NCBI GenBank assembly: GCA_963663275.1
Contig: OY760183.1
Span: forward strand, 96,001-160,000
DNA length: 64,000 bases
Direction of reading: 5' to 3'
Source of the DNA: Chloroflexota bacterium
GTDB lineage: Bacteria; Chloroflexota; UBA11872; VXOZ01
The translations under genes were made by a program, and so were the position numbers. This document shows, piece by piece, positions 550 to 64,000 of this stretch. Position 1 is the stretch's first letter. The number at the start of each line of letters is the position of its first letter. The notes under the pieces were generated by a model. It did not search any database and was not told the origin of the DNA. It was given only the letters and a program-made list of their open reading frames with translations.

Positions 550-568
550 GGCGTTTGCCCTCTCTACG

Positions 569-770
569 GAGACCCTTGCGTAACCCCGGTCGGCGCGCAT
601 TGAAACTCCCTCTCCCTGGGGAGAGGGCCGGGGTGAGGGGGAATCCTCGTCGGTTCGGCCCTCATTCCGCAAGATTCAGGCACGACGTGCCGCACAATCT
701 CCCCTCACCCTAACCCTCTCCCCCAGGAGAGGGAACTGTTCGCCTCTCAGCGAGGTTTTGCAAAGGTCTC
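569..770. mobile_element. MITE-like element, shell S1 (TIR GAGACCYTTGC), carrying two family-A hairpins
   Basis: Left GAGACCCTTGCGTAACC, right GGTTTTGCAAAGGTCTC; flanked by direct repeat CTACG (564-568, 771-775); inverted near-copies at ~14587-14795 and ~23950-24117. Confidence 0.8.
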
Positions 771-1024
771 CTACGGTTGCGACACCATGATTATAGCGTC
801 TTTGACGAAGGCGGCGTCTTTGACGAAGTCACCGGCTTTGCGGATGGCAGCGTCTTTTGATGAAGTCGGCGTCCGCGACCGGGTCCGTGCGCGCAACAAA
901 GCAGCCCGTCCCGAACCGCCGCCATTGACGGCGCGCGGCGATGCATAGATACTAATGACTGTAGGGGCTAATGGGAGCCCTGCACGGGACAAAGTCGTCC
1001 CTCAGACGCAAAGGAGTGGTTTCA

Positions 1025-14352: not shown

Positions 14353-14374
14353 CACCGTGCCAACTGGACTCTTA

Positions 14375-14547
14375 GAACCTGTTTACTATCTGCTTATGAG
14401 GGAGTTAGCAAAGCCGATAAAGACCGTTCGTGCTGAGCCTGTCGAAGCATGAACGGCTATATGCAACCTTGCGGTGGTTCCGTTCACCCTTCGACGCGGC
14501 TCAGGGCGAACGTTCCTGGTGCAGACAGGGAGATCGTAAACAGGCTC
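14375..14547. mobile_element. MITE-like element, shell S4 (TIR GARCCTGTTTACKATCT), TTA duplication, family-D cargo
   Basis: TTA|GAACCTGTTTACTATCT ... AGATCGTAAACAGGCTC|TTA; contains CCGTTCGTGCTGAGCCTGTCGAAGCATGAACGG and CCGTTCACCCTTCGACGCGGCTCAGGGCGAACG. Confidence 0.8.
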
Positions 14548-14586
14548 TTACGGATAGCCAACTTCTGAATCTGTCCCCAATCCCAG

Positions 14587-14795
14587 AGAAATCCTTTGCG
14601 AAACCTCGCCGCAAGGCGACCAATCCCCTCTCCTTGGGTAAGGCGACCAGTCCCCTCTCCCTGAGGGAGAGGGTTAGGGTGAGGGGAGATTGTGGGGCAA
14701 GCCGTGCCTAAACCTTGCGGAATGGGACCGAGCCGACGAGGATTCCCCCTCACCCCGGCCCTCTCCCCAGGGAGAGGGAGTTTCAATGCGCGCCG
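14587..14795. mobile_element. S1 element, inverted copy with one degenerate TIR
   Basis: Reverse complement of 569-770 over most of its length; begins GAAATCCTTTGCGAAACC. Confidence 0.7.
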
Positions 14796-17320: not shown

Positions 17321-17495
17321 CCTTGGTGTTACATTGAACTGACGCGCACTGTACTACCCGTTCGTGCTGAGCCCGTCGAAGTATGAACGGGTAGTACAGT
17401 GCGCCGCAGCCAACCCGCCGTTCACCTTTCGACAGGCTCAAGGCGAACGGCGGAGCGCGCCATCATCCCTATCTGAAGAGCAATCCATTCCTCAA
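17321..17495. mobile_element. Degenerate S3-type element with family-D hairpin pair
   Basis: Colinear with 51165-51300 and 59472-59675 (GCACTGTACTACCCGTTCGTGCTGAG...CCGTTCACCTTTCGACAGGCTCAAGGCGAACGG); begins in a REP-like GGGGGACGTGTCC. Confidence 0.55.
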
Positions 17496-17522
17496 GAGCA
17501 ACCCAATTCTCAAGAGCAAGCC

Positions 17523-18698
17523 ATGGCGGATGTCGTCAAAATCAGCATCGAGGCTACGGACGGCGCGGCGCGGGCCGGCGTATTGTCCACGCCGCGCGGC
17601 GCGGTGCGCACCCCCGCCTTCATGCCCGTCGCCACCCAAGCCAGCGTGAAGGCCCTTACCGCGGACGAGGCCGGCACGCTCGGCGCGGAGATGCTGCTGG
17701 CGAATACCTACCACCTGCTGCTGCGGCCGGGGCCGGACCTGATGCGGGACCTTGGCGGCCTGCATAATTTCATGCGCTGGCCGGGGCCGCTGCTCACCGA
17801 TAGCGGCGGCTTTCAGATTTACAGCCTGGCGCATCGGGTGGACGTCACCGACCAGGCGGTCACCTTCCGCTCGCACCTCGACGGCAGCGCCCACGAACTC
17901 AGCCCGGAGCGCGCCGTGGCGGTGCAGGAGGCGCTGGGCGCGGACATCATCATGGCGCTCGACCACCTGACGGCCCAGCCCGCCGCGCGCGCGGACGACG
18001 AAGCGGCGCTGGCGCGCACCCTGCACTGGGCCGCCCGCTGCCGCCAGGCCCACCGGCGCGGCGGCCAGGCGCTCTTCGGCATCGTGCAGGGCGGCTTGCA
18101 CCTGGACCTGCGCGAACGCGCCATCCGCGCGCTGGAGGAGATTGGCTTTCCCGGCTACGGCATCGGCGGCCTGAGCGTGGGCGAATCGAAAGCCGCCATG
18201 TACGTCATGCTGGCGCAACTGCATCTGCTCCTGCCGCCCGGCAAACCGCGCTACCTGATGGGCGTGGGCGCGCCGGAAGACCTGCTGGAAGCCATCGCCA
18301 ACGGCGTGGATCTCTTCGATTGCGTGCTGCCCACGCGCCTGGCCCGCCACGGCGCGCTCTTCACGCCCACGGGCCGCGTGAACATCCGCAAAACCGGCTA
18401 CCGCGCCCAGGTAGCGCCCGTAGACCCCACCTGCGACTGCCCCGCCTGCGCCCACTACAGCGCCGCCTACCTGCACCACCTCTGCCGCGCCGGCGAGTTG
18501 CTCTACCACCGCCTGGCCACGCTGCACAACCTGCGCTTCATCTTTCGCCTGCTCGCGGACGCCCGCGCCGCCATCCGCCAGCGCCGCTTCGCCGCCTTCA
18601 AAGCGGACTTCCTCGCCCGCTACACCCCCGCCGCCGAAGACGTGCGCATAGCCCAACGCCGCAAGTGGCAGGCGCGCCGGGAGAGTCGAAACACCTAG
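17523..18698 (+). CDS. tgt: tRNA-guanine transglycosylase
   Basis: TPAFMPV, LANTYHL, TDSGGFQ, GIVQGG, GGLSVGE, RYLMGVG, DCVLPTR, CDCPAC Zn motif, HNL. Confidence 0.96.
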   Translation: MADVVKISIEATDGAARAGVLSTPRGAVRTPAFMPVATQASVKALTADEAGTLGAEMLLANTYHLLLRPGPDLMRDLGGLHNFMRWPGPLLTDSGGFQIYSLAHRVDVTDQAVTFRSHLDGSAHELSPERAVAVQEALGADIIMALDHLTAQPAARADDEAALARTLHWAARCRQAHRRGGQALFGIVQGGLHLDLRERAIRALEEIGFPGYGIGGLSVGESKAAMYVMLAQLHLLLPPGKPRYLMGVGAPEDLLEAIANGVDLFDCVLPTRLARHGALFTPTGRVNIRKTGYRAQVAPVDPTCDCPACAHYSAAYLHHLCRAGELLYHRLATLHNLRFIFRLLADARAAIRQRRFAAFKADFLARYTPAAEDVRIAQRRKWQARRESRNT

Positions 18699-18796
18699 GC
18701 GCGAGATTCGTAAGCCCGGACGACACGCCTGTCCCGCGCTTGTCGAACGGTTGAAACCCGGAACGCCAATGAAGCGCCACGCAAGCCCAGCCGTAG

Positions 18797-19108
18797 GCGA
18801 CCATCGCAAAACGCCTTCCCCATCGATGGGCTGACAGGTGTAATGCCTCCAATGATCGACTTCACTTGTCATTCCGAACGGAGCGCAGCGGAGAGAGGAA
18901 TCTAAGGCGTTCGCTGCAAAAGCGTCGTTTCTAGATTCCGCGAACCCTGTTCGACGCTCCGCTCGGAATGACATTTACATACCCCTTTCAGCTCTCGATT
19001 GGGGAAGGTTGGAATGAGGGTGAAAGGGATTGACTTCATATGTGTATAACTATAAGAGCACCCTGGATTCCGGCTTTCGCCGGTATGACGGAGTTACGCA
19101 AAGGCCTG
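18797..19108. mobile_element. Nested element: S1 shell > family-A hairpin > S2 shell (18828-18994) > family-B hairpin
   Basis: Outer TIRs GCGACCATCGCAAAAC / GTTACGCAAAGGCCTG with flanks CGTAG/CGCAG; inner GGGCTGACAGG..CCCTTTCAGCTC with TCGAT duplicated, splitting CCTTCCCCA-TCGAT-TGGGGAAGG. Confidence 0.75.
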
Positions 19109-19132
19109 CGCAGCAAGTAGAGAACCAGTCCC

Positions 19133-19777
19133 CTAGCGGAAGCGCGCGCGGAGCTTTGCCCAGCGGGTGTGGGCGTGGACGAACCAGGGGCTTTGGCGCT
19201 TGACCAAGCGGCCGGCGCGCAGGGATTCGAGGAAGGTCCGGGGTGAATCGAAGTCCGCCATTTCCACGTAGGCGCGGCCAAGTTCCGTGGACGTGTGGGA
19301 GTCGCTGCCCGCCGCCGCCGTGAGGCCGTGCGCGGCGGCCAGCAATTCACCCCGCCGGTTATCGCGCGCAAAGGCCGTGCGCGCGTTGAAGACCTCGATT
19401 ATGTCCACCTGCGGCAGGATGCGCATCAGGGCGTCTTCCCGCAGGCGCGAGTTGCGAAACCGGTCGAACGGATGCGGGATCATCACCAGGCCGTCCTGCG
19501 CGCGGATGCGGCGGATCGTCTCCTCCGGCGTCATGCCGCGCGGGATGTCCTCGTGGAGGAACAGGCCGATGATCTCGCCCTCGCGGGTCTTGATCTCGTT
19601 GCCCACGATCACCCGCAGCGGCGCCCACTCCCGCAAGTCCAACGCCCCGGCGATGGTGTTGTGGTCCGTCACGGCCACGCAGTCGATGCCCGCGCGCCGC
19701 CAGCCGGCCACCGCGTCCGCCGGGGCCAGTTCGGAATCCGATGAGTATGACGTATGGGTATGCAGATCGACGCGCAC
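19133..19777 (-). CDS. PHP-domain phosphoesterase
   Basis: DLHTHT..S.D, VAVTDH, PHPFD, EVFNAR, GSDSH. Confidence 0.9.
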   Translation of the reverse strand: MRVDLHTHTSYSSDSELAPADAVAGWRRAGIDCVAVTDHNTIAGALDLREWAPLRVIVGNEIKTREGEIIGLFLHEDIPRGMTPEETIRRIRAQDGLVMIPHPFDRFRNSRLREDALMRILPQVDIIEVFNARTAFARDNRRGELLAAAHGLTAAAGSDSHTSTELGRAYVEMADFDSPRTFLESLRAGRLVKRQSPWFVHAHTRWAKLRARFR

Positions 19778-63250: not shown

Positions 63251-63925
63251 ATGACCGAGGCGTTGAAAGACGTTGACAACGCGCGGGCCGCGCCAGCAGA
63301 GACGCCGTATCCGGTACGGTTTTCGATAGAGTACAGCGCCTCCAGCAACCGGCTTACGGTGTTGTTGCGGCCGTTGCTGGTGATTCCGGTGCTGCTAATC
63401 ATGCAGTTGATTACCGGCGACCTCTGGAACACGCTGGACCCGTCGGCGGACGTGGTGAAAGCCATGCTGCCGTTCGTGGGCATGTTGTGGCTGGCGCCGC
63501 TGCTGATGATCGTCTTCCGCCGGAAGTACCCGCTGTGGTGCTTCGATTCGTACCTGGAACTCTATCGGTTCAGCGCCAGGGTGCTCGTCTACCTGCTGCT
63601 GTTGCGCGACGAGTATCCCTCGCTGGACGAAGAGCAGGCCGTGCGCCTCCGGATCGAGTACCCGGACGCCGCGGGCGAACTGCGGCGGTTTCTGCCCCTG
63701 GTCAAGTGGCTGTTGGCGCTGCCGCACCTGGCCGTGCTGACCGTTCTCGGCATCGCGGCAATGCTTGCGACCGTCATCGCCTGGTTCGCGATCATGGCCG
63801 TGGGACGGTATCCGAAGCGGCTCTTCACCTTCGTCGAAGGGTCGCTGCGCTGGGGCTTGCGGGTCTATTGCTACGCCTTCATGCTCACCACCGACCGGTA
63901 TCCGCCGTTTCGTTTCAGCCCGTAG
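63251..63925 (+). CDS. DUF4389 domain-containing membrane protein
   Basis: Two repeats of R..L.IP...F..KYP..F.....R...RV..Y..L..D.YP. Confidence 0.85.
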   Translation: MTEALKDVDNARAAPAETPYPVRFSIEYSASSNRLTVLLRPLLVIPVLLIMQLITGDLWNTLDPSADVVKAMLPFVGMLWLAPLLMIVFRRKYPLWCFDSYLELYRFSARVLVYLLLLRDEYPSLDEEQAVRLRIEYPDAAGELRRFLPLVKWLLALPHLAVLTVLGIAAMLATVIAWFAIMAVGRYPKRLFTFVEGSLRWGLRVYCYAFMLTTDRYPPFRFSP

Positions 63926-64000
63926 GGGACTTTGCAAAACCCCTTGCACATCGAGGGCTGACAAGCGTATGAAAGTGTCATTCCGAGCGGAGCGAGGAAT
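63926..64000. mobile_element. Start of another nested S1>S2>family-B element (truncated by window edge)
   Basis: CGTAG|GGGACTTTGCAAAACC ... ATCGA|GGGCTGACAAGCGTATG ... TGTCATTCCGAGCGG. Confidence 0.65.

Follow-up and report, generated by a model that had tools for sequence, protein, structure and literature searches.

Transposable elements nested within one another, plant MITEs among them, are known. In prokaryotes, elements nested 'as Russian dolls' figure in the description of an annotation pipeline (PMC3852290), and the word 'nested' is absent from the accessible text of a 2024 review of prokaryotic MITEs (PMC10969869). Several IS are described as targeting REP hairpins, namely IS1397 and ISKpn1 of the IS3 family; IS621, ISPpu9, ISPpu10, and ISPa11 of the IS110 family; and ISRm22 of the IS4 family, and the families named in the available portion of that survey are IS3, IS110, IS4, IS256, and IS5 (Tobes and Pareja 2006, PMC1525189). 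Among REPs, CGTC- and GTAG-tagged superfamilies are recognised, and in Thermomicrobium roseum REPs lie within small palindromes (Di Nocera et al. 2013, PMC3733652).

Against this background, we analysed a spacer of ∼430 bp that holds positions 18797-19108 of the window (the whole 64,000-nucleotide stretch of DNA under study) and that lies between two convergent open reading frames, at 17364-18698 on the plus strand and at 19133-19777 on the minus strand. A sequence-only reading had described the spacer as shells and palindromes nested four deep, each with its own target duplication, and had put it forward as a candidate for a new system, its organisation not being known from earlier descriptions. 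Direct reading found every motif that had been listed. In our assessment, the locus very probably arose by successive DDE-type transposition into hairpin loops, one MITE having come to lie inside another because each inserts into a hairpin loop and the outer one carries the hairpin that the inner one prefers. Terminal ends, duplications, target consensus, empty and filled landing pads, an empty-site allele, and an IS5-family partner were all observed directly. The nested insertions are genuine and well supported, and for two of the levels the mechanism is clear. They reveal no new mobility mechanism: the targeting of palindromic repeats by IS has been published, as have nested elements in prokaryotes (PMC1525189, PMC3852290), so the proposal of a new system falls away and the locus becomes a multi-family variant of known hairpin-targeted transposition.

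As among the REP-targeting IS, several families here enter palindromic repeats, and an IS4-family member duplicates the repeat; unlike in the available text of that survey, non-autonomous MITEs are among the guests, a MITE itself carries two of the landing pads (hairpins A and C), and IS5-, IS30-, and IS481-family elements are involved (PMC1525189). As in other nested systems, elements lie inside elements, but here the nesting is directed by sequence-specific hairpin-loop targeting, and a single bacterial genome has at least three guest-host pairs. Our literature search, whose coverage excluded most subscription journals, returned no account of a bacterial MITE whose hairpin is the specific landing pad of a different MITE.

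The window forms part of a genome consisting of a single contig of 3,531,182 bp with 64.3% G+C, in which repeats present in at least five copies occupy 6.2% of the sequence in 1153 islands, according to a genome self-comparison. Repeat matching combined blastn-short with substitution-only matching. We located five transposase genes in the genome, none of them (0/5) within the window, in agreement with the earlier statement that the window holds no transposase.

The outer shell (S1) spans 18796-19109 on the plus strand, or 314 bp including the nested element, with terminal repeats at 18796-18812 and 19093-19109 that share 13/17 and 14/17 positions with the family consensus. By direct reading, its target duplication comprises GTA at 18793-18795 and GCA at 19110-19112, which are 2/3 identical. 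The flanks CGTAG/CGCAG that had been reported are present as letters, but the duplication is 3 bp long, and the added C and G belong to the terminal repeats; likewise, the identity of 13/16 that had been given for each outer repeat against the ends at 569-770 comes to 11/16 and 12/16 when the coordinates given there are used. Genome-wide, the 17-nt end GGAGACCTTTGCRTAAC gave 301 matches with up to three substitutions, compared with 6 for a reversed-pattern control, and formed 101 inward-facing pairs. Fifty-four of these pairs are ∼142 bp long and lack an inner element, 19 contain one, 18 have a different interior that carries hairpin-E arms (including window 568-771), nine have an IS inside, and one falls outside these classes. 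Full-length relatives of the 18796-19109 composite number 21 in the genome and align with it end to end.

We then examined the flanks of 77 pairs, a set that differs slightly from the 101. The 3-bp flanks were identical in 42/77, compared with 2.4% in a mismatched-partner control, whereas 2-bp and 4-bp identity was seen in only 6/77 and 4/77, which sets the duplication length at 3 bp. The target was CCC-NNN-GGG in 64/77, and in 30/77 both hairpin-E arms flanked the element; among the nine IS-bearing pairs, an exact 3-bp duplication was found in one. A second MITE with the same terminal repeats (15/17 and 16/17 identical to the consensus) but another interior, which holds two hairpin-E units, lies at 568-771 on the plus strand, is one of the 18 elements bearing hairpin-E arms, and is bounded by a 3-bp duplication, TAC, at 565-567 and 772-774. 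The end motif occurs in all 17 genomes of the genus (17/17), with 3-177 matches in each. The outer shell is thus a MITE, having terminal repeats, a duplication of fixed length, an autonomous partner, and empty sites.

That partner lies beyond the window, where the earlier remark on the lack of a transposase no longer holds. A single-copy element of 1241 bp (genome 1441993-1443233) has GGAGACCTTTGCRTAAC-type repeats at its ends and an intact 333-aa frame, whose product belongs to the IS5 family by its score of 297.6 bits against the IS5-family model NF033581 (cut-off 140); a PF01609 match (E = 1.8e-32) falls at the same place. Relatives that are 75-79% identical occur in six congeners, and 11/13 of their loci are bounded by the same repeats, mostly within hairpin-E loops. 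At the orthologous place, the nearest congener (G007) has an intact, unoccupied hairpin, CCCTCTCCC-GCGC-GGGAGAGGG, and genome G000 has the IS5-family element there, with flanks TTCA/TTCA. Judged from these sequence features, the IS5-family element is most likely the autonomous partner of the outer MITE, which it would mobilise in trans. Since the two share only ∼20 bp, the case for trans-mobilisation rests on their common ends, target, and duplication length. A full-length IS with matching terminal repeats, which the sequence-only reading had suggested looking for, was therefore found for the outer ends, but none was found in this genome for the inner ones. As with trans-mobilised MITEs described elsewhere, the elements are short, noncoding, and multi-copy, with terminal repeats and a duplication, and an autonomous element shares their ends; they differ from those in the available text of that review in that their interior has no relation to the partner IS and is made up of two hairpins that serve other elements (PMC10969869).

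The first of these hairpins, hairpin A, has its left arm CCTTCCCC at 18814-18821 and its right arm GGGGAAGG at 19001-19008, the arms being read at the locus as CCTTCCCCA-TCGAT ... TCGAT-TGGGGAAGG. A search of both strands matched intact CCTTCCCC-loop-GGGGAAGG hairpins 110 times, the loop being ATTGA, ATCGA, ATTGG, or CACTG; hairpin A occurs essentially only within the outer MITE, of which 54 copies have hairpin A empty of an inner MITE. Hairpin A thus belongs to the outer MITE itself and serves the inner one as its landing pad; it is not the cargo that it had been taken for. The companion proposal, that the inner element uses a palindrome borne by the outer one as its pad, agrees with the existence of pads both empty and filled. 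The broader proposal, that the elements create targets for each other, is borne out for the two hairpins of the outer MITE, A and C, but only in part for the main pad, hairpin E, CCCTCTCCC-NNN-GGGAGAGGG, which is abundant and has 292 intact copies, of which only 27 lie inside recognisable mobile shells. Elsewhere in the window, a spacer of 432 bp (14353-14784) holds two repeat elements, one of them made up of two paired hairpin-E units; in G007, the orthologous spacer measures 9 bp.

The inner MITE (S2) spans 18831-18991 (161 bp), with terminal repeats CTGACAGG.../...CTTTCAG and inverted repeats read at the locus as GGGCTGACAGG.../...CCTTTCAGCTC. Its target duplication consists of CCATCGATGGG at 18820-18830 and CTCTCGATTGG at 18992-19002, which are 8/11 identical. 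The 5-nt loop that had been thought exactly duplicated around this shell is indeed present on both sides as TCGAT, but it is part of a duplication of 11 bp, and the locus copy is an imperfect one, with worn terminal repeats and incomplete identity in both duplications (2/3 and 8/11). The genome contains 110 paired copies of 130-260 bp with ends CTGACAGGGGTA. Their flanks were identical over 5, 7, 9, 11, and 13 bp in 39, 32, 28, 25, and 0 of the 110 copies, in a single register, and within one mismatch over 11 bp in 43/110. Enrichment of target duplications, proposed as a check, was accordingly seen at both levels (42/77 for the 3-bp outer and 25/110 exact for the 11-bp inner duplication).

The target of the inner MITE is CCC-N5-GGG within a longer palindromic context, the duplication spanning CCC-loop-GGG, and the whole genome has only 1226 CCC-N5-GGG sites. 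By a loose match of flanking arms, the copies reside in hairpin A (50), in hairpin E (45), beside REP F (10), or elsewhere (5), and 36 of the 50 hairpin-A assignments have recognisable outer-MITE flanks. Some of the copies beside REP F or elsewhere have perfect 11-bp duplications, and such duplications also occur off hairpins, for example at genome 2710945 and 3125558. The inner end motif gave 140 matches in this genome, 30 in G007, and 0-4 in each of the other 15 congeners.

No IS-length element with the inner ends was found in this genome, where long-range pairs of ends had scattered distances and 1-2 mismatches; no partner was found in G007 (ends with up to 1-2 mismatches); across the 98 genomes of the class, the inner ends had a few matches in another family of the class, and the three of six such places that were read yielded no transposase with these ends; and in G078, G007, and G077 none of the DDE_Tnp_1 matches stood beside an inner-end match. 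The transposase of the inner MITE thus appears to be absent from this genome, and because no IS-length element with its ends was found, an IS4-family enzyme is suggested by the length of the duplication. The preferred target of IS231A, GGG-N5-CCC, mirrors the CCC-N5-GGG seen here. In IS4-family subgroups, duplications measure 7-13 bp, with 10-12 bp for IS231 and 10-13 bp for IS4 proper in the available text (De Palmenaer et al. 2008, PMC2266710); the inner duplication of 11 bp falls within both of the latter ranges, and the IS4-family element of this genome duplicates ∼13 bp of REP F, although, unlike in that family, no IS4-family gene with the inner-MITE ends was found.

Within the inner MITE, hairpin B occupies 18867-18973, with long inverted arms TGTCATTCCGAACGGAGCG.../...CGCTCCGCTCGGAATGACA (read as GTCATTCC..GGAATGAC), and its right arm contains the 13-nt mini-palindrome CGAAC-CCT-GTTCG at 18941-18953; both were read where the sequence-only reading had placed them, inside the inner shell. 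All 110 paired inner-MITE copies (110/110) are at least 130 bp long, none being short enough to lack hairpin B, which has no duplication and is an integral part of the inner MITE, not a separate insertion. The pattern CGAAC-NNN-GTTCG occurs 30 times in the genome, 29/30 at one site of the B arm and in either arm, and is present in 3/21 aligned composites; in 14 arms, this B-arm site holds CGCT-AAG-AGCG, also a small palindrome. The mini-palindrome, likewise without a duplication, is a site-bound indel and not an independent mobile element. The supposed nesting four levels deep, each level with its own duplication, is therefore reduced to two transposition events, and the hierarchy of non-autonomous elements stands for the two outer levels, each with its own duplication, while the deeper levels are parts of the inner MITE. 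As a separate observation, a tandem duplication at genome 44384-44906 contains two copies of a shortened inner element without hairpin B, in an A-like hairpin, and the shortening looks like a deletion between TGACA repeats.

A second composite begins at the far end of the window, at 63925-64000 on the plus strand, with a terminal repeat, the left arm of hairpin A, the inner MITE (short side first), and hairpin B. The order of the first composite does restart here, as had been claimed from 63926 onward; however, this copy, which extends ∼87 nt past the window end, stops after hairpin B without the remainder, and its inner element is reversed relative to that in 18796-19109.

The second pad of the outer MITE, hairpin C, lies on the minus strand at 19065-19091 as CCGTC-ATACCGGC-GAAA-GCCGGAAT-CC, is CGTC-tagged and REP-like, and is empty at this locus. 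Its family form is CGTC-ATTCCGGC-GAAA-GCCGGAAT-CCA, from which the window copy departs by one stem mismatch, and intact copies number 186 in all. Checked against the text description, hairpin C fits the CGTC-1 REPs in its (i) tag, (ii) 8-bp stem starting with AT, (iii) 4-nt loop, and (iv) CCA tail. The likeness to that survey extends to REP F, which is GTAG-tagged and adjoins a RAYT, and to palindromes within palindromes in another Chloroflexota genome; a dedicated CGTC transposase and a nesting hierarchy are not reported in its available text, whereas here hairpin C rides in a MITE and is an IS30-family site (PMC3733652). Indeed, a 1033-bp IS30-family element lies within the hairpin C of an outer MITE in 9/9 genomic copies. 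Relatives of its transposase (L002-L081) were seen in many Chloroflexota, Dehalococcoidia, Nitrospirales, and Binatia MAGs; in 12/13 loci read, they lie within a CGTC-type hairpin, which points to a hairpin-specific IS30 lineage spanning phyla.

Other families use other hairpins. An IS481-family element (genome 75983-77248 and six more copies) adjoins hairpin-E arms at 16/17 ends; to judge from the flanks of one copy, its duplication may be 5 bp long (GGGAG). REP F hosts all four copies (4/4) of an IS4-family element whose ends are CAATGTTGTCGCATTAA, one of them at L001:64-1375 (genome 381613-382924); ∼13 bp of repeated target, GGGGCTTGTCCCC, flank the element. REP F, whose 19-nt motif gave 535 matches with up to two mismatches, also flanks the single RAYT (L001:1501-1809, genome 383050-383358; NF047646, 95.9 bits against a cut-off of 80), in the GTAG-tagged form CGTAGCGCGGGGGCTTGTCCCCCGC (CGTAGCGCGGGGGC...). 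In a genome from another family of the class (G078), one spacer (L142:1-260) has an outer-MITE end, an inner-MITE end, CGTC hairpins, and an E-like hairpin adjacent to one another, which indicates that these modules are older than the genus.

An empty-site allele of the locus was found in public sequencing runs. Contigs ∼96% identical to the flanking genes, from three runs in two studies (X1 and X2 of study P1, and X6 of study P3), join 18792 to 19120, 19132, or 19133. With only 9-21 other letters in between, these contigs lack the whole composite; they omit both elements jointly and so do not bear on a separate arrival of the two at this locus. Run X5 yielded contigs identical to the window, yet these end inside the composite, and we gave no weight to composite stretches without a bridging contig or to the very high summed depths over repeats. 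The proposed comparison for empty sites thus had a positive outcome at the locus itself, as well as at the site of the partner IS, where G007 has its intact E hairpin. A composite beside the ortholog of the downstream gene in G007 was considered as the same insertion and rejected, its junction being ∼20 nt off, its inner element flipped and of another variant, and closer strains being free of the composite. Separately, synteny is interrupted at window 18680-19132, the flanking genes being separated by ∼10 kb in several congeners and by ∼100 kb in G007; in the ∼96% identical strains of the public runs, they are adjacent.

The rival explanations differ first in how the composite came to be multiplied. 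If the inner MITE had entered an outer one a single time, and the resulting 310-bp unit had then spread only whole, this would fit both the 21 full-length relatives that align end to end and the public-run contigs that lack the two elements together. Such a fixed unit is, nonetheless, very unlikely. Fifty-four outer MITEs have no inner element, and ∼60 inner elements lie outside hairpin A with site-specific 11-bp duplications; among the 36 copies in recognisable outer flanks, the inner element points one way in 18 and the reverse way in 17 (one being uncalled); inner elements in A sites have their closest relative in an E site in 20/48 cases; and the duplication variants (CCCATTGAGGG in 4, CCCATCGAGGG in 3, and CCCATTGGGGG in 1) mirror the loop variants of the empty hairpins. 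The empty pads, the two orientations, and the empty-site allele together show that the composite is not one fixed unit, and the spread of nested units only as fixed composites, which the sequence-only reading had named as evidence against itself, was not what we found. The 18:17 split could, however, reflect inversion between the inverted ends of the inner element and not independent insertions. A history of few insertions into hairpin A, followed by in-place flipping through recombination between these ends, would draw on inverted repeats of 16-20 nt that lie ∼110 nt apart and on three tabulated loci in which hairpin B is reversed relative to its shell; the 3-nt loop of the mini-palindrome is also found in both orientations relative to the B arm (20 versus 7), as if small hairpin loops flip. 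We regard this history as improbable, though less so than a fixed unit, because both inner subfamilies occur in hairpin A (22 and 22), neither the subfamilies nor the nearest neighbours separate into A and E sites, and the duplications comprise several different sequences, each with a matching copy on the other side.

Two further explanations assign the shell to another source, and to both we give hardly any credence. The outer shell might be an internal-deletion derivative of a 1179-bp IS30-type element moved by an IS30-family transposase, since nine elements of 1179-1370 bp carry the first 104 bp and the last 42 bp of the MITE around an IS30-family gene. Yet only 4/80 relatives of this transposase in other genomes are bounded by the outer-MITE repeats; in 12/13 loci read, the conserved unit has its ends at ..GGATTCC/CTAGAC.. 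and ..CCACC/TTCC.GC....GC.GGAATGAC (the slash marking the boundary), that is, within a C-type hairpin; and the nine 1033-bp cores are near-identical, whereas the adjoining MITE sequence varies from copy to copy. The boundaries of the relatives and the copy-specific flanks led us to rule out the deletion derivative and to regard the IS30-family element as a guest in hairpin C. The remaining explanation, a REP/REPIN or BIME-like mosaic spread by a RAYT, or a structured RNA or terminator, could appeal to the presence of the RAYT, to the position of the locus between convergent genes, and to the strong fold of the 18797-19108 stretch, which as single-stranded DNA forms concentric helices (z = -5.4 against 100 shuffles). 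However, the sole RAYT is flanked by REP F and not by hairpins A, B, or C, so the suggested association of a RAYT with the palindromes of this locus did not hold, nor did a REPIN/RAYT origin for B and C; the only Rfam match on the stretch scored 25 bits against a gathering score of 76; and terminal repeats with direct duplications of 3 and 11 bp are the mark of DDE transposition.

Under successive transposition into hairpin loops, we infer the following order of events at this locus, together with the enzyme that moved each element. A 142-bp MITE with GGAGACCTTTGCRTAAC repeats would have inserted between the two convergent genes, most likely mobilised in trans by the IS5-family transposase whose own element has the same repeats; this enzyme would make a cut staggered by 3 bp and prefer CCC-NNN-GGG, above all the loop of hairpin E. 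The outer MITE would have brought its own hairpins A and C. A second MITE of ∼146-161 bp, with ends CTGACAGGGGTAGGCA and always with hairpin B, would then have entered the hairpin-A loop, duplicating 11 bp, with hairpin B and the 13-nt palindrome coming along as its parts. Elsewhere in the genome, outer MITEs have received the IS30-family element in their hairpin C.

In summary, at least five mobile families enter particular hairpin loops in this system, namely the IS5-family element with its MITEs, the orphan MITE with the 11-bp duplication, and the IS30-, IS481-, and IS4-family elements, and two of the target hairpins ride within a MITE. For annotation, this accounts for the concentric palindromes in spacers of uncultured Chloroflexota and for short-read assembly breaks there. 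The elements also form a compact natural system for studying the recognition of palindromic targets by DDE transposases and for asking whether selfish elements can add to the safe sites available to one another. We tentatively raise the possibility, which we consider rather less probable than its opposite, of a landing-pad economy in the genus, in which non-autonomous elements carry hairpin loops for which other transposases are specific: hairpin A for the inner MITE, hairpin C for the IS30-family element, and the shells with hairpin E for the IS5-family element and its MITEs. If this were true, a family that multiplied would thereby supply another with additional harmless sites, and the prior spread of its hosts would be what allowed the inner MITE its lineage-restricted burst.
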